Below, piece by piece: positions 1 through 19,878 of a DNA stretch of 44,453 nt. Location: positions 1 to 44,453 of the forward strand of contig CAYHMC010000010.1 of assembly GCA_964357615.1 (NCBI GenBank), read 5' to 3'. This DNA comes from an uncultured Candidatus Saccharibacteria bacterium (lineage in GTDB: Bacteria; Patescibacteriota; Minisyncoccia; UBA6257; JACOXY01). The notes under the pieces were generated by a model. It did no database searches. It saw only the letters and a program-made list of their open reading frames with translations, and was not told where the DNA came from. The translations under genes were made by a program, and so were the position numbers. The first letter of the stretch is position 1; every line of letters begins with the position of its first letter.

Positions 1-359
1 CAAGAAATGACAAAGACTATTCTAAAGGAATGAGTAAAAAAATGAAGCGAGTTGCTTTGGCATCAGCACTTTCTGAATATGTCAGAAAGGGAAAGTTAAA
101 GGTTATAGATTCTTTAAAAGTTGATGAACCAAAAACTCGTGAGGCACAAAGAATTCTCATTAATTTTTTTGGTCCCAAAAAACGACCAAGTGTTCTTATG
201 ATTCCATCAAGAAATGAGAAAAATATGGTTCAGGCATCGCGCAATCTTCCAAAAACTGAAGTGGCTTCAAGTGATGCACTAAATACTTATAATTTAATGC
301 AACATACAACAGTTTTAATTGATAAAGAAGCAATTGCAGAAATCGCTAAATTCTATTAA
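1..359 (+). CDS. rplD: 50S ribosomal protein L4, C-terminal part (5' end lies outside the window)
   Basis: ORF 30..359 continues in frame to the window edge. The C-terminal motif (ASSDALNTYNLMQHTTVLIDKEAIAEI) and its position just upstream of rplW are typical of uL4. Confidence 0.8.
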   Translation, partial: RNDKDYSKGMSKKMKRVALASALSEYVRKGKLKVIDSLKVDEPKTREAQRILINFFGPKKRPSVLMIPSRNEKNMVQASRNLPKTEVASSDALNTYNLMQHTTVLIDKEAIAEIAKFY

Positions 360-381
360 AATATATTGCTAATTTATAACC

Positions 382-666
382 ATGGAAAAATTTATTATAA
401 AAAATCCAATAATTACTGAAAAAGCTGGTTTCGCAAGTCATATTAATAAATATATTTTTAAGGTTGCAAAAAATGCATCAAGCGCAGAAATTCGAAAAGC
501 CGTAAATGATATATATAAAGTCCATGTTGTTAAAATTAATATTATAAATATTAAAGCAAAGCATGGATATTTTAGGGGGGTGCCAAATTCACTTAAAAAA
601 CAAGGTTTTAAAAAAGCCGTTGTAACAATTAAAGAGGGTGAAACTATAGATGTAATAGCTAAGTAA
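382..666 (+). CDS. rplW: 50S ribosomal protein L23
   Basis: 94 aa with a uL23-like sequence, placed between rplD and rplB. Confidence 0.85.
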   Translation: MEKFIIKNPIITEKAGFASHINKYIFKVAKNASSAEIRKAVNDIYKVHVVKINIINIKAKHGYFRGVPNSLKKQGFKKAVVTIKEGETIDVIAK

Positions 667-667
667 T

Positions 668-1489
668 ATGAAAACGTATAAACCAACAAGTCCGGGCATA
701 CGCCAAAAAACCACAGTAGATTTGAGCGAACTTTCCAAGTTGCCTCCAATGAGGTCAAAATTGAAGCGCCTTAAATCAAGGTCTGGAAGAAATAGTGCAG
801 GACGAATCACTGTGCGTCATCAAGGTGGAGGTCACAAAAAACTTTATCGTATGGTGGATTTTAAGCAGATGAAATTAGATGTACCAGGAAAAATTGAGGG
901 TATAGAATATGATCCATATCGCGCAGGATTTATTGCGAGAGTTTTATATAAAGATGGTAGTAGGGATTATATTTTGGCTGGCGAAGGCATGAAAGAAGAT
1001 GATGTTATAATTGCGTCAGAGAAAGCAGAACTTAAAAAAGGAAATAGATTACGCTTAAAAAATATTCCAGTAGGTACAGAGGTTTATAATGTTGAATTGG
1101 AACCAAATAACGGTGGTAAAATTGTAAGGTCTGCAGGTTCACGAGCAATTGTTTTAGCTCAAGAAGAGGGATATACAAATTTGCAGATGCCATCAAAGGA
1201 AGTCAGAAGAATTCTTTGGAATTGTTTTGCTACTATTGGTCAGGTTTCGAATGCTGAGCATTTACTTACGAATTTTGGTAAAGCAGGAAGGTCTAGGTGG
1301 CTTGGTATTAGGCCTACAGTTCGCGGTACTGCTATGAATCCAGTTGACCATCCATATGGAGGAGGAGAAGGTGTTCAGCCAAGAGGAACCAGAAAACCTA
1401 AGACTATGTGGGGTAAAGTTACTGGAGGAAGAAAAACAAGAAATAAGAAAAAGTGGTCGAAGAAGTTAATAGTTAAAAGAAGAAAATAA
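668..1489 (+). CDS. rplB: 50S ribosomal protein L2
   Basis: 273 aa with the conserved uL2 core ([19 protein letters not shown] ... HPYGGGEG). Confidence 0.95.
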
Positions 1490-1490
1490 A

Positions 1491-1799
1491 ATGTCACGAT
1501 CATCAAAAAAACAACCATTTATAGACGAAAAACTTCTTAAAAAAGTTTTAGCAGCTAAAGCAATAAAATCACAAGAACCAATTAAAACTTGGTCGCGTGA
1601 TAGTGAAATTTCACCTGAAATGGTAGGCATAGTTTTTGCCGTTCATAATGGAAAGGATTTTATTACTGTTAGAGTAAACGAAGATATGATTGGTCACAGG
1701 CTTGGTGAATTTTCACTTACAAGAAAATTTACTAGACATGGAGGTAAGTTACAAAAAGCAGTTGAAGAAGGTACAACAAAACCAGCTACAGCTAAATAA
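1491..1799 (+). CDS. rpsS: 30S ribosomal protein S19
   Basis: uS19 motifs ([20 protein letters not shown]); its start is 2 nt after the rplB stop. Confidence 0.95.
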
Positions 1800-1814
1800 A
1801 AATTTAATTATAAA

Positions 1815-2330
1815 ATGGCACAACAAATTGCAAAACTAAATTATTTAAAGATGGCACCACGCAAAGTGAGGCTTCTTGCAAGTGCCCTAAAGGGTCTTTC
1901 TGCAAATGAGGCTGAAGCATATCTCTTGATGCAATCTCGTAGACCAGCAAAAGCACTTTTAAAACTTTTAAGAAGTGCAGTTTCTAACATAAAAAACAAC
2001 CAAAAGCTTGACACCACTAATTTTTATGTGCAAAGTATACGAGTTGATGGTGGTCCAATGCTTAAACGTAGTTTGCCTCGTGCTCGAGGTACGGCTTCTC
2101 CTATTCAAAAGAAGATGAGCCATGTTATTTTAGTACTAGAAGAATCATTAAAGCCTAAAAAGAATCGCTTTCAAATTGTTATTCCAAAAAAGATAAAAGA
2201 TAAAGATTTGAGGGATAAACCAAAATCAAAGAAAATTGAATCAATTGATAAAGAGAAAGAGTCGAAAGAGCAAGCAAAAGAAAAGCCTGGCTTTACAAAG
2301 AAGTCATTCTTTAGAAGAAAATCAATTTAG
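1815..2330 (+). CDS. rplV: 50S ribosomal protein L22 with a lysine-rich C-terminal extension
   Basis: The N-terminal 110 aa are uL22-like (MAPRKVRLLASALKGLSANEAEAYL). The last ~60 aa form a K/E-rich tail. Confidence 0.85.
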   Translation: MAQQIAKLNYLKMAPRKVRLLASALKGLSANEAEAYLLMQSRRPAKALLKLLRSAVSNIKNNQKLDTTNFYVQSIRVDGGPMLKRSLPRARGTASPIQKKMSHVILVLEESLKPKKNRFQIVIPKKIKDKDLRDKPKSKKIESIDKEKESKEQAKEKPGFTKKSFFRRKSI

Positions 2331-2343
2331 TTATTAAATTTGT

Positions 2344-3126
2344 ATGGGACATAAAATAAATCCAAATTCATATCGTTTAGGAATAAATAAACCATGGCAA
2401 TCACGATGGTTCTTTCGAAAGAATTTCCGAGAATTTTTAGAGCAGGATGAAATAATTCGTAAAGCAATTTATGAAAAAATTGCAACAGCAGGAGTTGTTG
2501 GCATTGATATCGAAAGAACATCTGGAAAATGTAGAGTAACAATTAGAGCTGCAAAACCAGGAATTGTAATTGGAAGAGGCGGAAAGGGAATCGAAGAATT
2601 GCGTGATAAAATAAATCACTTAGTTGTTTCCTCGCTAAAGAAAAGAAGGGTGAAAATTGAAAAATTAGATGGTGTTTCTTTGGCGATTGAAGAACTAAAA
2701 CGGTCAGAGGTTTCGGCTTCATATATTGCTCAACAGATTGGATGGGATATGGAACGCCGATTACCATGGAGGAGAGCAGTTAAAAAATATCTTGAGCAAA
2801 TAATGCAAAATAGAGATGTTAAGGGCGCAAAAATAAAAGTTGGTGGACGACTTGATGGAGCTGAAATTGCTCGCAAGGAATGGCTGGCCAAAGGTAGCTT
2901 ACCTCTTCAAACACTTAGGGCTAATATTGATTACGGAACTGCAACTGCTTTTACTACTTATGGAACAGTAGGAATTAAAGTTTGGGTGTACAAAGGAGAA
3001 GTATTTTTAGAAAAAAATGAGTCAACTGCTGATAAGAAATCAACTAAGGATTCTGAATTTAAATCGGCGCACAATAAATCAATGAATAATTCGGATGAAA
3101 TTAATTCAGTGAAAGAAGCAGTTTAA
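2344..3126 (+). CDS. rpsC: 30S ribosomal protein S3 with a C-terminal extension
   Basis: uS3 N-terminus (GHKINPNSYRLGINKPWQSRWF) with KH-like and S3-C regions, followed by a ~45 aa S/K/N-rich tail. Confidence 0.9.
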   Translation: MGHKINPNSYRLGINKPWQSRWFFRKNFREFLEQDEIIRKAIYEKIATAGVVGIDIERTSGKCRVTIRAAKPGIVIGRGGKGIEELRDKINHLVVSSLKKRRVKIEKLDGVSLAIEELKRSEVSASYIAQQIGWDMERRLPWRRAVKKYLEQIMQNRDVKGAKIKVGGRLDGAEIARKEWLAKGSLPLQTLRANIDYGTATAFTTYGTVGIKVWVYKGEVFLEKNESTADKKSTKDSEFKSAHNKSMNNSDEINSVKEAV

Positions 3127-3138
3127 AGTAAATATTTT

Positions 3139-3549
3139 ATGTTAATTCCAAAAAAAGTAAAACATCGAAAATGGCATAAAGGTAGGTCTAGAGATAGACT
3201 TGTTGAAACACGCGGAACAACGCTTTCTTTTGGATCGTTTGGTTTAAAAGCACTTGAGCCTGGATGGCTTAATTCTCGTCAAATTGAAGCAGCTAGAAAA
3301 ACAATAACAGGCTTTATAAAACGAGAGGGTAGAGTGTGGATTAGAATTTTTCCAGATAAACCAATAACCAAACAAGCACCAGAAAAAACCTTAGGTGGTG
3401 GTAAAGGTAATGTTGATCACTATGTTTTCGTGGTGCGACCAGGTAGAGTTTTATTTGAGATGGATGGAGTGGATAAAATAGTAGCAACCGAAGCATTGCG
3501 ATTAGCTGGTCATAAATTGCCGGTAAAAACCAAAATGGTAACCAAGTAA
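3139..3549 (+). CDS. rplP: 50S ribosomal protein L16
   Basis: uL16 motifs ([16 protein letters not shown] ... [11 protein letters not shown]). Confidence 0.95.
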
Positions 3550-3558
3550 GATATCTAT

Positions 3559-3756
3559 ATGAAAAATAATGAATTTAAAGAATTAAAAAATCACAACATT
3601 GAAGACTTAAGAAAAAAATTGATTGAAAATCGACTCCAGTTGCAGTCTTTGAGGTTTGATTTGGCGGCTGGGAAAATTAAAAATGTTTCAATGATTCATA
3701 AGACCAGAAAAAGTATAGCTAGAATTTTAACGATAATTAACACAAAACAATCCTAA
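3559..3756 (+). CDS. rpmC: 50S ribosomal protein L29
   Basis: 65 aa, sits between rplP and rpsQ, with uL29-like helical sequence. Confidence 0.85.
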   Translation: MKNNEFKELKNHNIEDLRKKLIENRLQLQSLRFDLAAGKIKNVSMIHKTRKSIARILTIINTKQS

Positions 3757-3765
3757 TTCATATTT

Positions 3766-4047
3766 ATGGAATTAAATACAAATAAAACTAAAAAATCAAG
3801 AAAATTAGAGGGCGTCGTAGTTTCTCATAAAATGAATAAAACACGAACGGTTATTGTTAGTTGGTTTAAAAAGCATCCCAAATATCATAAATACTACAAG
3901 CAGAGTACTAAATTTAAAGCCCACGATGAGAACAATGAATACAAAGAAGGTGATAAGGTTGTAATTGCAGAAACAAGACCACTTAGCAAAGATAAAAGGT
4001 GGATTATTATTGAAAAATTAGAAAATACTAAAGTTACTACTAAATAA
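3766..4047 (+). CDS. rpsQ: 30S ribosomal protein S17
   Basis: uS17 OB-fold motifs ([16 protein letters not shown] ... [18 protein letters not shown]). Confidence 0.9.
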
Positions 4048-4052
4048 ATTAT

Positions 4053-4421
4053 ATGATACAAGAACGATCCATACTTAAAGTTGCTGATAATTCTGGCGCA
4101 AAAATTGTGCGTTGTTTTCGTGTGCTTGGTGGGTCTAAGAGGCGATATGCAGAAATGGGTGATATTGTAGTGGCGTCTGTTCAGGTTGCTGAGCCAAGAA
4201 AAACTCTGAAGAAGAAAGATATTGTGAAGGCGCTAATTGTTAGACAGCGAAAACCAATTCGAAGAAAAGACGGCTCTTATATTCGTTTCGATGAGAATGC
4301 TGTAATTATTGTAGATGCCAAAAAAGAACCAATCGCAACAAGAGTATTTGGACCAATACCAAGAGAATTAAAAGATCTTGGATATGAAAAATTAATGAGT
4401 CTTGCAGAAGAGGTTGTATAA
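4053..4421 (+). CDS. rplN: 50S ribosomal protein L14
   Basis: MIQERSILKVADNSGAK ... highly conserved uL14. Confidence 0.95.
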   Translation: MIQERSILKVADNSGAKIVRCFRVLGGSKRRYAEMGDIVVASVQVAEPRKTLKKKDIVKALIVRQRKPIRRKDGSYIRFDENAVIIVDAKKEPIATRVFGPIPRELKDLGYEKLMSLAEEVV

Positions 4422-4446
4422 ATAATTTAAACAATAATAGATAAAC

Positions 4447-4758
4447 ATGATTACCCATTTAAAAAAAGGAGACACAGTAAAAATAATTACAGGAAAAGAT
4501 CGTGGTAAAACAGGAAAGGTATTAAAGGTTTTTGGAGAAAAATCACTTGTTTCTGTTGATGGCGTAAATGTTTACAAAAAACATGTTAAACCCAAAAAAC
4601 AAGGGGAGAAGGGCGAAGTTATTAATTTATCAAGACCACTTAAAGCATCAAATGCTCAACTAGTGTGCCCATCTTGTTCTAAGTCGGTTAGAATTGGATT
4701 TAGATTAGAAGGAGAAAAGAAAGTTAGATATTGTAAGAAATGTAATGCCAGTATCTAA
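4447..4758 (+). CDS. rplX: 50S ribosomal protein L24 (KOW domain) with a C-terminal CxxC...CxxC zinc-ribbon-like extension
   Basis: KOW motif (KKGDTVKIITGKDRGKTGKV), then CPSC ... CKKC in the last 30 aa. Confidence 0.85.
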   Translation: MITHLKKGDTVKIITGKDRGKTGKVLKVFGEKSLVSVDGVNVYKKHVKPKKQGEKGEVINLSRPLKASNAQLVCPSCSKSVRIGFRLEGEKKVRYCKKCNASI

Positions 4759-4772
4759 TTCAATTTCAATAA

Positions 4773-5303
4773 ATGATTTTTATGAAAAATATAAAGATAA
4801 ATAAAATTGTAATAAATGTAGGAGTAGGAAAACTTAGTCAGTTGCCTAATTTTAATGATAAAATTTTGCCTACAATAACTGCTGAGTTGTCTCGTATTTC
4901 TGGTCAAAAACCAAAAACAACAACCTCAAAAAAATCTATTGCAGGTTTTAAATCTCGCGTTGGTCAAATAATTGGCATAGTGATTACTCTTCGTGGCAAG
5001 AGAGCAATTGATTTTGCAAGCAGGCTTACAATTACAGCCTTGCCTCGTGTAAAAGATTTTAGGGGGCTCAATATTGAAAATGTTGATAAAAACGGGAGTT
5101 TGAATATTGGTATTAGAGAGCATGTAGTTTTTCCAGAAATTAAGGCTGAAGATTCACCGTATAATTTTGGTTTGCAAGTTACAATCGTGTTGTCTGGAAC
5201 TACGGATCGAAATGAAGCAATAGAATATTATCGAAAGATTGGCATTCCATTAAAAAAACATGAAATTAATATTAAGGGTGGAAAACATAAAAAAGCCAAG
5301 TAA
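4773..5303 (+). CDS. rplE: 50S ribosomal protein L5
   Basis: uL5-like sequence in the expected position; the true start may be the ATG at 4782. Confidence 0.9.
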   Translation: MIFMKNIKINKIVINVGVGKLSQLPNFNDKILPTITAELSRISGQKPKTTTSKKSIAGFKSRVGQIIGIVITLRGKRAIDFASRLTITALPRVKDFRGLNIENVDKNGSLNIGIREHVVFPEIKAEDSPYNFGLQVTIVLSGTTDRNEAIEYYRKIGIPLKKHEINIKGGKHKKAK

Positions 5304-5358
5304 ATATTGATTTTTTCTAATATTTGGGTTATAAGTTAGTGACTATAAATTATTCTAT

Positions 5359-5544
5359 ATGGCAAAACAATCTGTTATAGCGCGAGCACAAAAGGTACCA
5401 AAATTTTCATCACGAATAGTGAGGCGTTGTTTTCGCTGTGGTAGAAAGCATGGATATATAAGAGATTTCGGATTGTGTCGTATTTGTTTCCGTGAGATGG
5501 CATCAAATGGACAGATTCCAGGAGTAAAAAAATCGAGTTGGTAA
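5359..5544 (+). CDS. rpsZ: 30S ribosomal protein S14, zinc-binding type Z
   Basis: 61 aa with CFRCGRKHG ... CRICFRE, the Cys4 pattern of short-type uS14. Confidence 0.9.
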
Positions 5545-5567
5545 TTAAGTTAAAATAAATTATTTAA

Positions 5568-5942
5568 ATGTACACAGATTTACTTATTAGAATTAAAAAT
5601 GCAGAGGCAGCAAAAAAACCTTCTTTGAAGGCTCCTTATAATCAGCTTGATTATTCGGTTGCTTCTGTGCTTGCAAAACATCACTTTATTAAGCAAGTAG
5701 AGAAGAAAGGCAGGGGACCAAAGCGAGTAATGGAAATTACTTTAAGTACTAATAAGCGTCAAATCGATGGCATAAAGTTTATAAGTAAACCATCAAGAAG
5801 AATTTATTCTGGTTATAAAGATTTTACTTCAGTTAGGCGTGGTTTTGGAATTGCAATAATATCAACACCGATGGGAATTATTGATAGTAAAGAAGCTAGA
5901 AAAAATAAAGTTGGAGGAGAGGTATTATTTGAAATTTGGTAA
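5568..5942 (+). CDS. rpsH: 30S ribosomal protein S8
   Basis: MYTDLLIRIKNA ... uS8 signature. Confidence 0.9.
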   Translation: MYTDLLIRIKNAEAAKKPSLKAPYNQLDYSVASVLAKHHFIKQVEKKGRGPKRVMEITLSTNKRQIDGIKFISKPSRRIYSGYKDFTSVRRGFGIAIISTPMGIIDSKEARKNKVGGEVLFEIW

Positions 5943-5949
5943 AATTATT

Positions 5950-6495
5950 ATGTCAAAAATAGGTAAACAACAAATTAAAATACCAGAAGGGGTAACAATT
6001 AGTCTTAATGATGATGTTATTTCTGTTACGGGACCAAAGGGTAGTCAAGACACTCCAGTTTTAAAGTATGTGGATTTTAAAATAACTGATGGAGTTTGCA
6101 TTGCAACAATTAATACAGAAAGCAAGCAGGCGAGCGCTAATTGGGGAACAACAATCTCGCTTCTTCAGAATGCAATTTTAGGTGTAACCGAAGGCTATTT
6201 AAAAATTTTAGAAATAGAAGGCGTTGGTTATAGAGCTGCGCTCGATGGCAAAGATTTAATGTTAAATGTCGGATATTCTCATCAGGTTCGTTTTACCCCC
6301 CCAGAGGGAATTACGATTGTAGTAGAAAAAAATGTTATCAAAGTAAGTGGTATTAATAAATATTTAGTAGGAGAATCAGCCGCTGGTATTAGAGCTATAA
6401 AAAAACCAGAACCATACAAAGGTAAGGGAATACACTATCGGGGTGAGGTTATTGTTCGCAAGGCCGGTAAGAAAGTTGCTGGTACAACATCTTAA
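5950..6495 (+). CDS. rplF: 50S ribosomal protein L6
   Basis: The tracked ORF starts at 5881 but overlaps rpsH. The in-frame ATG at 5950 (MSKIGKQQIKIPEGV) lies 8 nt after the rpsH stop and is the typical uL6 start. Confidence 0.9.
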   Translation: MSKIGKQQIKIPEGVTISLNDDVISVTGPKGSQDTPVLKYVDFKITDGVCIATINTESKQASANWGTTISLLQNAILGVTEGYLKILEIEGVGYRAALDGKDLMLNVGYSHQVRFTPPEGITIVVEKNVIKVSGINKYLVGESAAGIRAIKKPEPYKGKGIHYRGEVIVRKAGKKVAGTTS

Positions 6496-6517
6496 TTTTA
6501 TAAAATAATTTTTATAT

Positions 6518-6880
6518 ATGTTAACTAAGAAAATAAATAAAATAAGAATATTGCGCAAAGCTAGATCAAGGTCTAGAATTTTTGGCACAGCAGAATTGCC
6601 AAGACTATCAGTTTTTAGAAGCAACAAATATATATCAGCTCAACTTATTAATGATCTAAATGGAAAGACACTTGTTTCAGCAACATCTTTTAAGTTTAAG
6701 AAAGAGAAGAGCAAGGCAATTAAGAAAAGCGATTCCGCGTTTTTAATTGGAGAGGAAGTTGCTAGTAAGGCGAAATCAGCTGGCATTACAGGTGCAGTTT
6801 TTGATAGAGGTAGTTATAAATATCATGGTCGTGTTAAAGCAGTTTGCGAAGGAGCAAGAAAAGGTGGACTAAAGATATAA
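6518..6880 (+). CDS. rplR: 50S ribosomal protein L18
   Basis: uL18 N-terminal R-rich motif and GxxGxxFDRG C-terminus. Confidence 0.9.
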   Translation: MLTKKINKIRILRKARSRSRIFGTAELPRLSVFRSNKYISAQLINDLNGKTLVSATSFKFKKEKSKAIKKSDSAFLIGEEVASKAKSAGITGAVFDRGSYKYHGRVKAVCEGARKGGLKI

Positions 6881-6919
6881 ACGACAACTGATTTTTAAAA
6901 GAAGCGAATTAATAAATTT

Positions 6920-7480
6920 ATGGAACAACATCAACAAAATAAAAGAGGTCAAAGAAATCAACCCCGAAATGATAGGCGTCGTGGTAAAAATGATTACATC
7001 ACAAAGGATGCATTTAAAGAGCAGGTGCTTGATTTAAGGCGCGTTACGCGTGTTGTGGCGGGTGGAAAGCGTTTTCGTTTTAGAACAACGGTGGTTATTG
7101 GTGATGGCTTAGGGACTGTTGGTGTTGGCGTCGCAAAGGGAGCAGATGTTCAGCAATCAATTGGAAAAGCCAAAGAAGATGCAAAAAAGAACTTGATAAA
7201 AATTCCCTTGAAGGGCTCTACGATACCTCATGATGTTCAAGCAAAATACAGCGCAGCTAGAGTTTTAATTAGACCCGCACCAAAAGGTAATGGATTAAAA
7301 GCTGGTGGAGCCGCCAGAGTTGTGCTTTCTTTAGTTGGAGTTAAGGATGCCACTGCAAAGTGTCTCGGTAGAACAAAGAATAAACTTACAAATGCAATGG
7401 CCACTATTGAAGCTCTAAAACAACTAAGGTCAAGAGATAGAAATATTAATGTGGAGGGGTCAAAAAAGGTAAATAACTAA
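6920..7480 (+). CDS. rpsE: 30S ribosomal protein S5
   Basis: uS5 dsRBD (VLDLRRVTRVVAGGKRFRFR) and C-terminal domain. Confidence 0.9.
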   Translation: MEQHQQNKRGQRNQPRNDRRRGKNDYITKDAFKEQVLDLRRVTRVVAGGKRFRFRTTVVIGDGLGTVGVGVAKGADVQQSIGKAKEDAKKNLIKIPLKGSTIPHDVQAKYSAARVLIRPAPKGNGLKAGGAARVVLSLVGVKDATAKCLGRTKNKLTNAMATIEALKQLRSRDRNINVEGSKKVNN

Positions 7481-7488
7481 TTTTTTAT

Positions 7489-7905
7489 ATGCATAATTTA
7501 CTTAAACCAAGAACAAAACTTAGGTCAAAAAAACGAATTGGAAGAGGAGGAAAGCGTGGTACAACTTCTGGACGAGGACAAAAGGGTCAAAAATCTCGTT
7601 CTGGTCACAAAATGAGGCCTGCTTTTAGAGATACATTGATAAGCATTCCAAAGTTAAAGGGTTTTAGAAACAAACCGCTTTCTAAAAAGTCTCAAGTTAT
7701 TTCTCTTGATGTTTTGGCAAATTTAAAAATTAATGATATTACGCTTCAATCTTTGGTTGAAGTTGGTCTTATTAAAAAAAGCCATGGTGGCGCTGTTAAA
7801 ATATTGGGAAATGGCAAGATTAATAGACCCATAACTATACATAAAATTACTATTTCAAAGTCAGCTAAAGAAAAAATTGAAAAAGCTGGCGGAAAGGTGT
7901 TATAA
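7489..7905 (+). CDS. rplO: 50S ribosomal protein L15
   Basis: uL15 G/R-rich N-terminus. It starts 8 nt after rpsE, so there is no room for an L30 gene. Confidence 0.9.
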   Translation: MHNLLKPRTKLRSKKRIGRGGKRGTTSGRGQKGQKSRSGHKMRPAFRDTLISIPKLKGFRNKPLSKKSQVISLDVLANLKINDITLQSLVEVGLIKKSHGGAVKILGNGKINRPITIHKITISKSAKEKIEKAGGKVL

Positions 7906-8001
7906 TATTGTTGCTGAAAAAGGATTTGTAGTTGATATATAAATTAATCACTAAAATTAATTGCTTGGGCGTTCTTACACCCTGCTTCATATGGGATGTA
8001 T

Positions 8002-16140: not shown

Positions 16141-16638
16141 TTACTCCGCAAGGCACAATTTTACAAGAGGATTATTTCTGTCCTTCCAGAATTTTTGTTT
16201 TGTGCCGAGAAAAAATTCTCTAAAGACACTACGAGCTTCTTCTCGCAATATCCCTTTGATTATTTTTGGATGTTCGCCACGATGTCTCTGTGGTAATAAC
16301 TCGTGTGGCAAATAACTAATACCACCAAATGAATCTTCTACTGAATATACTATAGTTCCTATTCTGCAATTAAGGAGAGTTCCAAAACACATAATACATG
16401 GCTCGAGTGTCGTATAAATCGTCATTTCATCTGCCCACTTGTGACTCAATATGTCCATGCAATGCCTAAGGACTTTAATCTCAGAATGATCAAGGCGGGG
16501 ATTATCCTTGCTAGTTTTGTGGCTAATACTTATAATTTCATTATTCCAAACCATTACTGCTCCAACCGGCAGTTCATCCTCTGTAATCGACAATCTGGAT
16601 TCCTCTATGGCATATCGCATAAATTTTTCGTGGCTCAT
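16141..16638 (-). CDS. CMP/dCMP-type zinc deaminase, tRNA adenosine deaminase (TadA)-like
   Basis: H(S)E ... PCxxC zinc motif (DHSEIKVLRHC ... LEPCIMCFG). Confidence 0.7.
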   Translation of the reverse strand: MSHEKFMRYAIEESRLSITEDELPVGAVMVWNNEIISISHKTSKDNPRLDHSEIKVLRHCMDILSHKWADEMTIYTTLEPCIMCFGTLLNCRIGTIVYSVEDSFGGISYLPHELLPQRHRGEHPKIIKGILREEARSVFREFFLGTKQKFWKDRNNPLVKLCLAE

Positions 16639-16728
16639 TTTCGCCTTCCTATTTTGTTGCTATTTTTAACTTAACAAAGGTGATGTGAAATTGCAATAAA
16701 AATAGTTCTATTCTATATTATTCATATT

Positions 16729-16800
16729 GCGCGCATAGCTCAGGGGTAGAGCGTTCGATTCACATTCGAAAGGTCCCTGGTTCGAGACCAGGTGCGCGCA
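16729..16800 (+). tRNA. tRNA-Val (anticodon CAC)
   Basis: Cloverleaf folded by hand: acceptor GCGCGCA / TGCGCGC, D-arm GCTC / GAGC, anticodon stem TTCGA / TCGAA with loop TTCACAT, T-arm CCTGG-TTCGAGA-CCAGG. No encoded CCA. Confidence 0.85.
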
Positions 16801-16864
16801 CAAAATAAATATTATGTTTTGTAGCCATGATTGACATTTGTATGGTCTTATATAAAATAGAATT

Positions 16865-17035
16865 ATCTCCTTGAAAATAGAATATTATCAAGAGTGAGCC
16901 GAGGGTATTGGCCCTATGACGCTCCAGCAACCTGCCTTATGGTAAGGTGCTCCCAACCCGTTTGAAGCGGGGAAGATAGTATTCTGTTCGAAAAGAACTG
17001 CTTACAAAAACATCCGCTTCGAGTGGGTGTTTTTG
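16865..17035 (+). ncRNA. Candidate structured RNA or leader of unknown class, ending in an intrinsic terminator. It follows a TTGACA promoter at 16831.
   Basis: Several short hairpins (GAGGGTATTGGCCCT, CCCGTTTGAAGCGGG). The terminator is CATCCGCTTCGAGTGGGTG followed by TTTTTGTTT. Confidence 0.25.
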
Positions 17036-17059
17036 TTTAACCGAGAGGAAAAGGAAAGT

Positions 17060-17521
17060 ATGAGTGAAAAAGAAAAAATTGACCTTAGGTCGTTAAATCC
17101 ATCAGAATTTCCAATAGGTACTAGATTGCAAATAGCTCAGCTCTGCGAGTGCCTAATATGTGGATTCCAAACTTCGGATATAGAAATTGATAACAGGGGA
17201 AAGTGGGGTATGAAAAGGGATCCCTATATCTTTATTAAATGTGAGAATATTTTTAAAGAATGGCATAGTAAAATTATTGGAAGTATAGATTGGTTACATA
17301 ATCACCCACATCCAAAATCATACAAAGTATCAATGGCTAGAGAAATTAAAAAAATGCGAAAGAATTGTTTTCTGAAATACATAACTAAAATTGAACCCTC
17401 AGCTCCACCCAGTCGTATAATATATTTTGCGTCGTCTCTTCATATCTGTTCGTTATCCGACTTCGATATTTCCTTAGGTCCAATTTCAGTTGATCAGAAA
17501 AAATATTGGGTATTGGATTAA
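17060..17521 (+). CDS. Hypothetical protein (Cys/His-rich, CECLICGF ... HNHPHP)
   Basis: ATG at 17060 preceded by GGAAAGG; a terminator follows at 17554. Confidence 0.45.
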   Translation: MSEKEKIDLRSLNPSEFPIGTRLQIAQLCECLICGFQTSDIEIDNRGKWGMKRDPYIFIKCENIFKEWHSKIIGSIDWLHNHPHPKSYKVSMAREIKKMRKNCFLKYITKIEPSAPPSRIIYFASSLHICSLSDFDISLGPISVDQKKYWVLD

Positions 17522-17553
17522 AGCTAAATTCTAATCGATAACTAATGGCGCAT

Positions 17554-17590
17554 ATTAAACATTGCGCCTTATTTTTTTATTAGATACAAA
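17554..17590 (+). terminator. Rho-independent terminator (GGCGCA ... TGCGCC then TTATTTTTTT)
   Basis: Seen in the sequence. Confidence 0.5.
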
Positions 17591-17673
17591 AAATATTTAC
17601 CAAGTTTTGAATAGTAAAAAATAGACACACCTGCAGGACGCACAAAAATAAAAAAGCACCAATTTTATAGGTG

Positions 17674-17892
17674 CTAGTTAGGAAATAATTGCAACAAAAT
17701 ATAAGTAATCGTAATAATCGAAGGCAGGGCTATTGTAATGGCAAGTAGAATGCCCTGAATAATGTATTTGGTCTTCTTTGATACTCTTGGCGTACGCGGG
17801 CGCGATGCCGTTAGATCTTGATGTGGGATAAATATATCTTCGGAGCGAATTGGGCCTCCAGGACCTGCTTTTGTGACCATAATTAGTTCCAA
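17674..17892 (-). CDS. Small tail-anchored membrane protein, hypothetical
   Basis: C-terminal TM helix; a hairpin terminator for the minus strand lies at 17648..17672. Confidence 0.4.
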   Translation of the reverse strand: MELIMVTKAGPGGPIRSEDIFIPHQDLTASRPRTPRVSKKTKYIIQGILLAITIALPSIITITYILLQLFPN

Positions 17893-18004
17893 TCGTTAAT
17901 TCTAAGATTTACTGCCAATACTTTAAAATAAAAGCTCAATAAAAGCAAATTTAATTTTCAAAAAATTATCTTGCTAAAAATTGAATTTTATTGTAATGTA
18001 TAGA

Positions 18005-18076
18005 CGCGGGGAAGTGTAACGGTTGCACGCGGGGCTCATAATCCTGAGGTAGTAGGTTCAATTCCTACCCCCGCAA
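18005..18076 (+). tRNA. Initiator tRNA-fMet (anticodon CAT)
   Basis: Acceptor CGCGGGG / CCCCGCA with a C1·A72 mismatch, anticodon loop CTCATAA, T-arm GTAGG-TTCAATT-CCTAC. This is nearly the E. coli tRNA-fMet pattern. Confidence 0.85.
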
Positions 18077-18354
18077 CAAGTGAGCGAAGGCGAGCGGTAG
18101 TTGAGGAGCGGAGGCGACGAAATGTCAAAAATAGTAATTGTGGTATGCCCAGCGCCAGTAACCGAGAAAAGAGCGAGGAAATACTAAGTGTAGCAACACG
18201 CATGTGCAGGCGGCGGGTACCACACGACGGAACAACAAAAAGGACTCCAATGGGGTTCTTTTTGTGTTATATCTGAATGTGGAGGGGTAGGAATTGAACA
18301 CAAATAGGCCTGCCCGCTGGTAGGTAGGACATAGGAAGGTAATTCATCCTTAAA

Positions 18355-18383
18355 TTGACATTATGATATAAATATGCTATAAT
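18355..18383 (+). promoter_or_regulatory. Consensus sigma70 promoter TTGACA-N17-TATAAT driving GC-rich cassette 1
   Basis: Exact -35 and -10 hexamers with a 17-nt spacer. Confidence 0.5.
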
Positions 18384-18453
18384 TTATGAAGCAAATTGTA
18401 ATCCCCATAAGTCCTGACCGCAAGGAAGGCGGGGAGTAGGAAAGGCAAAACCG

Positions 18454-18828
18454 ATGAGTTTCAAACAAGAGTTTGGCATCAAGGGTTCGACCTTCGTGCT
18501 CTGGTGCGTCGTCGCTTCCGCGATGATTCTCGGGCTCGCGTGGGTTGGCCAGGGAAGCGACTTCTTCCTCTACAAGGTCTTCGCGCCGAAGTACGAGGCC
18601 GTGCGTCGCGATACCTTCGAGCAGTCGAAGGCGTACAACCAGGGCATGATCCAGGAGCTCCAGAACATGCAGTTCGAGCATGCGAAGGCGCATCCGGGGC
18701 AGAAGGATGCTCTTGCGTCCATCATCCTGCATCGGGCCGCCGACTACGACCTGAACGACCCGCGAGTTCCCGCTGAACTCCGGCAGTTCGTCCAGAGCCT
18801 CCGACAAGAACGATCGAGCGCTCGCTAA
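18454..18828 (+). CDS. GC-rich (~60%) hypothetical protein with one N-terminal TM helix
   Basis: Strong GC3 codon bias on the + strand; GGAAAGG lies upstream. The minus-strand ORFs here are high-GC shadows. Confidence 0.6.
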   Translation: MSFKQEFGIKGSTFVLWCVVASAMILGLAWVGQGSDFFLYKVFAPKYEAVRRDTFEQSKAYNQGMIQELQNMQFEHAKAHPGQKDALASIILHRAADYDLNDPRVPAELRQFVQSLRQERSSAR

Positions 18829-18853
18829 GAGCAAGAAAGAAGGAGACCAAGAG

Positions 18854-19378
18854 ATGAAACAAGCGAAGATTCTTGCAGTTGCAGTGTTCGCACTTTTCGC
18901 GGCCTGCGCTCCTCCTCCCACGAGTAGTGATGTCCAACGGGACCGTCAAGAAACGATGGTCGCTGAGGGCGTCTCTCAAGTCGGCGTTCCCGCCATCGTG
19001 AACTTTCGCGAGTACAAGCTTGCGAAGGACATCTACGAGATGCGGGACCAGACCGGTCTCGTGACTTACACCTACCTCTGGAGTGACATTCAGGGTAAGC
19101 TCCTCTTCTTCTGCGATTCCATCGGCTACCCGATTCCGTACGCCACGCAGTTCTCGGCGCCGGAATCGGTTCAGCGTTTCTACCTGCCGGGACGAGGAAA
19201 TGTTCCTCGTGAGTGGGGCAAAGAGAAACTGCCCCAAGCCGAGCCGAACGGACTCTTCACTCCCAGCTCTGCCGAAGGCACCTGGGTCATGTGCAAGGAT
19301 CCGAATGGCAAGGACACGCGGCCGACCTATGTCGAGCCTCGAGTCATCGTCACGCAGTTCAAGCTGACGACCGACTAA
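18854..19378 (+). CDS. GC-rich hypothetical lipoprotein (signal peptide with LFAAC lipobox)
   Basis: AAGGAG Shine-Dalgarno, GC3 bias, N-terminal MKQAKILAVAVFALFAAC. Confidence 0.6.
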   Translation: MKQAKILAVAVFALFAACAPPPTSSDVQRDRQETMVAEGVSQVGVPAIVNFREYKLAKDIYEMRDQTGLVTYTYLWSDIQGKLLFFCDSIGYPIPYATQFSAPESVQRFYLPGRGNVPREWGKEKLPQAEPNGLFTPSSAEGTWVMCKDPNGKDTRPTYVEPRVIVTQFKLTTD

Positions 19379-19414
19379 CGGTAGCGGGTTCAAAAATCCC
19401 GCGATGAGTACACG

Positions 19415-19460
19415 CCCCCGACGGAAAATGCGCCATGCGCAAATTCTGTCGGGGGTTTTT
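19415..19460 (+). terminator. GC-rich intrinsic terminator (CCCCCGAC ... GTCGGGGG then TTTTT)
   Basis: Seen in the sequence; it closes cassette 1. Confidence 0.6.
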
Positions 19461-19521
19461 CAATTGTAAAAATTGAGTTAATCGGCAGTTCTTTTGAGTT
19501 AGAGAGTAATTTGATAGAATT

Positions 19522-19878
19522 ATGGCTATGGCTATTAAAAATAAATCATCACATGTAAAAGCTTTGGAAAAGAAAGTAAAAATTGTAATGAAAAAATATC
19601 AGCTTGAATATCCGGATGTCAAAGTAGATAGAGATTACTATCCTTTTAAAATTACCGAGGAGTGGGGAGAGTGTTTACAAGCATTTCTTATGTTTACTGA
19701 CCGTGGGCGTCAAAAAGGGAAAAGCAAAAAAGAAATTAAAAATCTCCTAGAAGAAGAATTAGCGGATGTTTTCGGGTATATGTTGCTTTTTGCTCAAAAT
19801 GAAAATATTGACTTGGAAAAAGCATTAGACAAAAAATGGTTTACATATCTAAGTAAATCTCAAAATAATTTGAAATAA
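19522..19878 (+). CDS. MazG-like nucleoside triphosphate pyrophosphohydrolase
   Basis: EExGE ... EELADVFGYMLLFAQ ... IDLE motif pattern. Confidence 0.55.
   Translation: MAMAIKNKSSHVKALEKKVKIVMKKYQLEYPDVKVDRDYYPFKITEEWGECLQAFLMFTDRGRQKGKSKKEIKNLLEEELADVFGYMLLFAQNENIDLEKALDKKWFTYLSKSQNNLK

Follow-up and report, generated by a model that had tools for sequence, protein, structure and literature searches.

A high-GC gene pair for a membrane protein and a lipoprotein beside an initiator tRNA gene of a Saccharibacteria chromosome is probably a horizontally acquired, moron-like unit

The present analysis concerns a cassette of two genes in the genome of an uncultured Candidatus Saccharibacteria bacterium, located on contig CAYHMC010000010.1 of assembly GCA_964357615.1; the whole stretch of 44,453 nucleotides (nt) that was analysed is referred to as the window. 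The cassette lies in the intergenic space between the gene for the initiator tRNA (tRNA-fMet) and a MazG-like gene, and comprises a predicted promoter, a gene for a single-pass transmembrane protein (TM partner), a gene for a lipoprotein (LP), and a terminator (Table 1). The tRNA-Met(CAT) gene shows an initiator feature, the acceptor mismatch C1xA72, which was read directly from the sequence. Besides the MazG-like gene, the neighbours of the cassette include an open reading frame (ORF) of 164 amino acids (aa), the gene for a CsoR-type metal-sensing repressor, and a 773-aa P-type ATPase-like gene. With its tRNAs, a SAM (S-adenosylmethionine) riboswitch, and the repressor gene, the context of the window is chromosomal, and positions 1-8000 hold a run of short co-oriented ORFs whose appearance in the sequence, rather than a profile scan, suggests a ribosomal-protein cluster.

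Table 1. Features of the cassette and its immediate surroundings, in positions of the window.
Feature	Position	Strand	Evidence and remarks
tRNA-Met(CAT) gene, left neighbour of the island	18005-18077	+	ARAGORN; Rfam tRNA, 53.8 bits
Purine-rich non-coding spacer, 157 nt	18078-18234	n/a	GC 0.40-0.68, unlike AT-rich host intergenic DNA
14-bp hairpin between A-tract and T-tract	18235-18265	+	terminator scan; fold -18.5 kcal/mol, z = -5.0
Exact 16-nt inverted copy of tRNA T-loop, T-stem, and start of acceptor arm	18284-18299	-	reads GTTCAATTCCTACCCC(TCCA)
Predicted sigma-70 promoter, TTGACA-17-(TG)TATAAT	18355-18383	+	12/12 consensus positions, extended -10 TG
5' untranslated region (UTR) with GGAAAGG Shine-Dalgarno-like site	18384-18453	+	fold z = -1.1
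124-aa single-pass membrane protein gene (TM partner)	18454-18828	+	one hydrophobic helix; 950 homologues
174-aa lipoprotein gene (LP)	18854-19378	+	signal peptide, lipobox LFAAC, phrog_24725 match 3.7e-27
GC-rich intrinsic terminator: nested hairpin (19414-19456) and TTTTT	19414-19460	+	z = -4.7
AATCGGCAG, 9-mer past the terminator	19480-19488	+	one other exact copy in the window, 43391-43399

The base composition of the cassette, with a GC content of 0.58, differs from that of the remainder of the window (0.36). Along the sequence, GC rises from 0.15 in the 40 nt before the tRNA gene to 0.68 at 18080-18119, is uneven (0.17-0.60) until 18453, holds steady at 0.57-0.59 over 18450-19450, and is 0.30 or lower beyond 19460. 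GC at third codon positions (GC3) amounts to 0.78 for the TM gene and 0.69 for the LP gene, which is approximately 8-9 host standard deviations above the host median of 0.245 (standard deviation ~0.06, determined from the ORFs of the window). An earlier note, made from the letters of this DNA, had described a GC jump after the tRNA 3' end, a strong GC3 bias of the genes for a TM protein and a lipoprotein, a perfect TTGACA-N17-TATAAT promoter at 18355, a GC-rich terminator, and a 16-nt inverted copy of the tRNA 3' part inside the island. GC values along the sequence and the GC3 of the ORFs confirmed the high-GC segment and the GC3 outliers, with the refinement that the jump just after the tRNA is followed by patchy composition up to 18453, and the promoter, the terminator, the inverted copy, and the nature of both proteins were likewise recovered; all elements of that observation are thus confirmed as real.

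Within the entire window, only two sites match the promoter consensus at all 12 positions, one heading the cassette under study and the other a further unit described below (28434-29065). The 5' UTR of the window cassette is not conserved, and the UTRs of its relatives differ. Among relatives with an LP identity of at least 48%, a TTGAC-type promoter was found within 260 nt upstream in 28 of 57, often of the TGnTAxxxT type, and a hairpin with a T-run closes the cassette in all relatives inspected. The mobile unit thus extends from the promoter through the UTR, the TM gene, and the LP gene to the terminator.

Additional elements were noted around these control signals. One subclade (L032, L035, L074) has a conserved UTR of ~90 nt (...ctgaccgtatttt...aaaatgcggtcatggtgatcgcagg...) upstream of the membrane-protein gene, which may represent a regulatory RNA and is absent from the window cassette. 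Furthermore, the second copy of the 9-mer AATCGGCAG directly follows the stop codon of another high-GC cassette in the window, both copies being located at cassette 3' ends, and CGGCAG-like motifs occur after the lipoprotein stop codon in L005, L009, L011, and L021. The motif could be a common 3' signal or a coincidence, and its status is uncertain. A T-arm-like hairpin after the lipoprotein stop codon (19384-19402) was considered as well and dismissed, as relatives are unrelated in this region save for the loose CGGCAG-like motif.

For the TM partner, the AlphaFold2 model (pLDDT 89) shows a continuous helix spanning residues 9-78 and two further helices, and comparison of this model with known structures returned generic helical folds only. 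The match of the TM partner to phrog_26268 is weak (E 0.0075), and hhalign aligned it to Gp44 of Clostridium phage phi3626 with a probability of 92%. The LP begins with a signal peptide and lipobox (MKQAKILAVAVFALFAAC), the cysteine of which (Cys18, predicted to be lipidated) is kept in at least 90% of 57 homologues; two further cysteines, Cys87 and Cys147, are nearly invariant, and the alignment from phages to the candidate phyla radiation (CPR) contains 26 invariant columns. Homologues of the LP number 1,882 in a set of 5.8 billion proteins (805 clusters at 50% identity), and each of them has a single domain and a length of roughly 115-275 aa (in most cases 160-230 aa); no domain fusion was found. 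The closest relative (P0002/P0243) shows 86% and 80% identity. As predicted from these features, the LP is evidently an extracytoplasmic, membrane-anchored protein, and its ectodomain is probably of the alpha/beta type and disulfide-bonded.

The two genes are tightly linked. Of 82 chromosomal or metagenomic loci with the LP gene, 63 were found to have a TM homologue nearby, which in almost every case is the gene immediately upstream; among the viral loci, one was detected in 79 of 80. In comparisons with the closest relatives, the ratio of nonsynonymous to synonymous substitution rates (dN/dS) is 0.08-0.20 for the LP gene and 0.14-0.32 for the TM gene. Because of these low ratios (0.08-0.32 overall), the invariant columns, and the conservation of the lipobox cysteine together with Cys87 and Cys147, the pair is, on sequence evidence, a functional, co-inherited two-protein module under purifying selection.

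The same pair is widespread in phages. Its proteins match phrog_24725 and phrog_26268, with the genes adjacent, and named carriers are Synechococcus phage S-SRM01 (QPX48103/QPX48102; 54% identity for the LP, 50% for the TM partner) and Clostridium phage phi3626 (Gp45/Gp44; 36% identity). In phi3626, the pair adjoins genes for a single-stranded DNA-binding protein (SSB), a SpoIIID-like transcriptional regulator, and a putative recombinase, and no lysis gene is annotated nearby. Vibrio phages contain an LP homologue (the LP alone was checked), and the LP was detected in 306 viral contigs of IMG/VR. The best viral match (L137) shares 67% identity, has a GC content of 66%, and contains genes for an HNH endonuclease and a DNA methyltransferase as well as PHROG families. 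After the pair, 33 of 80 viral loci encode a third small membrane protein (135 aa; e.g., L155 6480-6887 and S-SRM01, L001 3405-3812, where it is annotated as 'membrane protease subunit'), which has no Pfam match and is absent from the window cassette. On plasmids, no homologue was found.

On the cellular side, a scan of one genome per GTDB species yielded 78 loci, approximately 32 of which belong to named Patescibacteria lineages, including Saccharibacteria, Doudna-, Wolfe-, Vogel-, Kaiser-, Uhr-, Berkel-, and Peribacteria, and approximately 10 to metagenome-assembled genomes (MAGs) labelled only as 'bacterium'. The remaining loci are scattered across other phyla and archaea; at least one of these latter contigs (L019) is the same contig as an IMG/VR viral genome (L139). 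As a separate observation, a Doudnabacteria contig whose isolate name includes 'viral-cat' (L007) carries a second lipoprotein-like ORF (4664-5221) directly after the LP gene, which may be a tandem paralogue.

The chromosomal sites of the cassette are unrelated to each other, for example between fusA and tuf (L005), beside mreB (L008), or after a tmRNA gene (L012). Clustering of the flanking ORFs from ~115 chromosomal or metagenomic loci revealed no third conserved gene, integrase, or transposase beside the pair; apparent third-gene families in chromosomal loci proved to be overlapping shadow ORFs or GTPase paralogues. In a neighbour-joining tree, viral and cellular copies are interleaved throughout, and the clade of the window cassette (at least 63% identity) comprises flanks with a GC content of 0.36, 0.41-0.42, 0.47-0.55, 0.66 (viral), and 0.69. 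Since relatives this close span backgrounds of 36-69% GC, transfer must be frequent.

Across 92 loci, the GC content of the LP gene follows that of its flanks with a slope of 0.67 (r = 0.72), being more than 5 points higher in 40 loci and more than 5 points lower in 9. The excess of the window LP gene, +0.22, is the largest of any locus examined, and it is not intrinsic to the LP gene, because the excess in viral contigs is only +0.047 +/- 0.046. These values also bear on the idea that the pair is native and vertically inherited, its high GC being kept by selection, e.g., on mRNA structure or expression. While the LP gene is indeed richer in GC than its flanks, by 4-5 points on average over the 92 loci and also in phages, this is far from the excess seen here, and neither the GC3 deviation of both genes nor the low GC3 (only 0.13-0.27) of highly expressed genes in the window, including those for ribosomal proteins, fits such selection. 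Moreover, cassettes in other low-GC hosts have ameliorated (e.g., GC3 0.27 at a flank GC of 0.31-0.35), and the locations are non-syntenic. A native origin is therefore extremely improbable.

Recent horizontal acquisition of the cassette, by comparison, is strongly supported by the sequence comparisons, and the pool from which it came is one that moves between genomes faster than it ameliorates. The earlier note had likewise proposed horizontal acquisition, against which homologues of both genes at the same locus and of the same composition in related genomes would have spoken; what we found instead are homologues at non-syntenic sites, in backgrounds of 36-69% GC and on viral contigs, besides the GC3 outliers. 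With regard to the donor, no named best hit is actinobacterial, and those relatives that have a name belong to the Patescibacteria; among carriers of high GC, the viral contig of 66% GC mentioned above and a contig from a Myxococcota MAG (63% identity) are nearest. Loss was observed too: another Hainich Patescibacteria genome contains a 5'-truncated LP remnant (L131 1-330; also L130 and L083), which directly follows the preceding gene's stop codon and keeps the last 53 codons (76% identity) and the terminator, so cassettes also decay or get lost.

Taken together, we consider it probable that positions 18355-19460 constitute a self-contained, horizontally acquired, moron-like unit of promoter, two genes, and terminator in a low-GC, Patescibacteria-like chromosome. 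The unit would have arrived from a gene pool of phages and CPR bacteria, via a relative of 55-66% GC, and its entry would not have been site-specific, involving, e.g., illegitimate recombination after phage infection or DNA uptake, with the tRNA gene as a neighbour of the insertion and not its target. Once in place, the cassette would be transcribed constitutively from its own predicted promoter, and the helical domain of the TM partner would face the same side as the LP, so that both could cooperate on the outer side of the cytoplasmic membrane. The acquisition itself is ordinary gene transfer.

That the cassette is physically part of this genome follows from the recurrence of its right junction in independent assemblies. 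A Logan contig (L003) is 100% identical over 18613-19877 and runs from the high-GC terminator into the low-GC MazG-like gene, and a single-sample assembly from ENA (L004) covers 18338-19529 with one single-nucleotide polymorphism and an N-gap. Further independent contigs from Hainich groundwater samples cover 18151-19033 and 18257-18866 as well as the host side (16515-18039). Contiguity across both junctions, which the earlier note had proposed to examine, is therefore established for the right one and not for the left one: none of the independent contigs retrieved covers positions 18040-18150, and an exact look-up with the neighbouring gene, the membrane-protein gene, and the junction-spanning ORF returned no contig across the left junction. 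Thus, the placement immediately 3' of the tRNA gene is supported by the window assembly alone. This gap, the role of tRNA genes as classic misjoin points, and the low coverage of all supporting contigs (1-3x) are what speaks for an assembly chimera, in which a high-GC segment of another organism was joined at a conserved tRNA gene. However, the right junction recurs as described, cassette and host contigs have similar coverage within the same samples, and many other CPR genomes harbor the same kind of insertion, which makes a chimera very unlikely.

The position of the cassette next to a tRNA gene had led to the suggestion, in the earlier note, of a tRNA-targeted integrative element or its remnant. 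In such a scenario, the integrase and most of the element would have been deleted, leaving the two genes and a scar of the tRNA gene. Consistent with this, the island begins right after the tRNA-fMet gene and contains the exact copy of its 3' part: positions 18056-18071 and 18284-18299 are complementary at 16 of 16 positions, and such a match is unlikely to have arisen by chance, because its BLAST E value within the window is 0.002-0.013. Read on the minus strand, the 16-mer resembles the last 20 nt of a tRNA (GTTCAATTCCTACCCCTCCA) and is followed in that direction by the hairpin at 18235-18265, which looks like a bidirectional intrinsic terminator. In addition, L007, L012, L016, and L025 have a tRNA or tmRNA gene on the same strand immediately upstream of the pair, and the adjacency of tRNA or tmRNA genes is enriched approximately twofold.

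However, the copy is inverted and internal instead of direct, and no direct repeat of the tRNA 3' end exists at the far boundary, the best candidate being a T-arm-like match of 12 of 14 positions (19380-19393) with compensatory differences in the T-stem. Neither an integrase nor a recombinase was found at the locus or beside ~115 relatives, and among 126 loci screened, the window is the sole case with a tRNA fragment near the cassette. The tRNA genes near other cassettes all differ from one another (Gln, Glu, Arg, Lys, Ser, Pro, and tmRNA), most cassettes have no tRNA gene nearby, and the enrichment is marginal and in part expected, because insertions must land in intergenic DNA. Given that there is no direct repeat and no recombinase, and that the fragment is restricted to the window, tRNA-targeted integration is not supported, and we regard a remnant of this kind as unlikely, albeit less so than a chimera.

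Several other explanations for the DNA around the two genes were also pursued. Comparison of both flanks with all loci (blastn and tblastx) revealed no conserved flanking DNA or att site. A putative target-site duplication, TAAAAATTGA(A/G)TT at 17975 and 19467, is an AT-rich 13-mer that has a third copy at 19577 and overlaps the tRNA promoter; it was judged to be due to chance. The spacer at 18078-18234 has no plausible ORF, no Rfam match, and no similarity to any fetched locus. A non-coding RNA in 18078-18453 was rejected, as no Rfam match was obtained with gathering and E-value thresholds and the fold z-scores come from the terminator hairpin. The 16-mer might be a scar that a second tRNA gene in convergent orientation, or some older event, left behind; a decayed second tRNA gene at this site was likewise rejected, since the alignment matches the 16-nt core only and similarity around the inverted copy stops there.

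Returning to the moron-like unit acquired by non-specific insertion, several findings weigh against it. A simple random insertion leaves both the exact 16-nt inverted fragment and the GC-rich spacer of 157 nt unexplained. Furthermore, a tRNA or tmRNA gene lies within 500 nt of the pair 8 times, compared to 3.8 expected from the density in the same 122 loci (Poisson p = 0.04). No independent assembly that was retrieved spans the left junction, and neither an empty site nor a sister genome was found, the closest MazG-like neighbour being 71% identical and non-syntenic. Finally, the window locus is chromosomal, among housekeeping genes, and is not a prophage; 'moron' is therefore used as an analogy of architecture and does not denote a homologous family.

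As to the function of the cargo, no family of Pfam or NCBIfam matches either protein, the defence models of PADLOC gave no match for the pair at E <= 1, the PDB holds no sequence relative and no fold match for the pair, and BFVD returned uncharacterised phage proteins only. In spanins of the Rz/Rz1 type, the gene for a membrane protein that has a helical ectodomain precedes a lipoprotein gene. The gene order of the pair resembles this arrangement, and the pair is phage-borne, so a spanin-like lysis module (i-spanin and o-spanin) or another phage lysis accessory was considered. Nonetheless, the LP has 174 aa and a conserved globular domain, unlike short proline-rich o-spanins, and there is no Pfam match to Rz/Rz1. 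The pair also occurs in phi3626, which has a Gram-positive host and no lysis gene annotated near the pair, and CPR chromosomes keep it as a stand-alone unit with a constitutive-looking promoter and under purifying selection. A role in lysis thus appears highly improbable. Instead, a role that benefits both phage and host is favoured, because phages of monoderm, diderm, and CPR hosts carry the pair and cells keep it as a unit with its own promoter. The preferred candidate, to which we give low confidence, is superinfection exclusion: the pair would be an envelope module of phage origin that serves to block or modulate the entry of other phages.

Other parts of the window hold units of similar appearance and further genes. 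A second high-GC mini-cassette at 42700-43450 reaches a GC content of 0.67, compared to ~0.33 in its flanks; it has a promoter-like site (TTGCAT-17-(TG)TATAAT), a hydrophobic ORF of 37 aa (~42802-42915), and a basic ORF of 144 aa (42958-43392; GC of 0.65/0.50/0.76 at the three codon positions), directly after whose stop codon follow AATCGGCAG and then a GC-rich hairpin with a T-run. Searches of Pfam, PHROGs, the phage collection, IMG/VR, and the fetched loci gave no homologue of its protein. A third unit (28434-29065; GC ~0.50) consists of the other perfect TTGACA-17-TATAAT promoter (28434-28462), an ORF of 160 aa (28514-28996) that matches neither Pfam nor PHROG families, and a terminator formed by a hairpin and a T-run. 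This genome may regularly gain genes in the form of such GC-anomalous units of promoter, ORF, and terminator.

Besides these, a cytochrome P450 gene is located at 27064-28308 on the minus strand, and a gene at 29203-31797 on the plus strand encodes a protein of 864 aa in which Major Vault Protein shoulder and Vault_3 domains were recognised; a similar vault-domain gene is present in L087 (6831-9386). The SAM riboswitch (16882-16982, 62 bits) is followed by a Cys-rich ORF of 153 or 164 aa (17027-17521) with no Pfam or PHROG match.

The interest of the locus lies in the cargo, a large, strongly conserved, and uncharacterised two-protein membrane module, and not in the acquisition event; a cyanophage and a CPR-like bacterium still share up to 53% identity in it. 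The pair is found in phages that infect widely different hosts and is enriched in Patescibacteria, a group with poorly understood cell-surface biology and phage interactions, and the locus illustrates the way in which reduced CPR genomes acquire genes, namely as ready-to-express mini-units that come without mobile-element machinery. A broader and rather speculative view is that Patescibacteria chromosomes are repeatedly seeded, without a recombinase, by promoter-gene-terminator units from the phage pool, and that the pair represents a new, widespread envelope system. If this were true, the pair, for which there would be no relative whose structure or function is known, could serve to exclude phages or take part in how episymbionts interact with their host cell.

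Compared with known systems, the locus shares with tRNA-targeted genomic islands its position directly 3' of a tRNA gene, its foreign composition, and a short internal copy of the tRNA 3' end; it differs in the missing integrase, the inverted orientation of the repeat, the restriction of the cargo to two genes, and the mostly non-tRNA sites of its relatives. The likeness to Rz/Rz1 spanins is limited to gene order, whereas the large globular LP, the lack of linkage to lysis genes, and the occurrence in phages of monoderm hosts and in CPR chromosomes set the pair apart. Morons are autonomous promoter-gene-terminator units described in the lambdoid phages HK97 and HK022. The cassette resembles them in having its own predicted sigma-70 promoter and intrinsic terminator, a deviant composition, an insertion between unrelated genes, and envelope proteins as cargo, and in that the same unit is present in many phage genomes (phage morons are reviewed in PMC3714127). 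Ltp of Streptococcus thermophilus phage TP-J34 (PMC3952083) and Llp of phage T5 (PMC9586334) are, similarly, phage-encoded surface lipoproteins with their own promoter that are retained by the host cell, although they have no sequence or fold similarity to the LP (no Pfam match, no PDB fold match), which in addition comes with a membrane-protein partner. Closest of all are the phage copies of phrog_24725 and phrog_26268 in phi3626 (Gp45/Gp44) and S-SRM01, which differ from the window cassette in their host-like GC content and their location inside phage genomes, but are its direct homologues and agree with it in gene order and in size.

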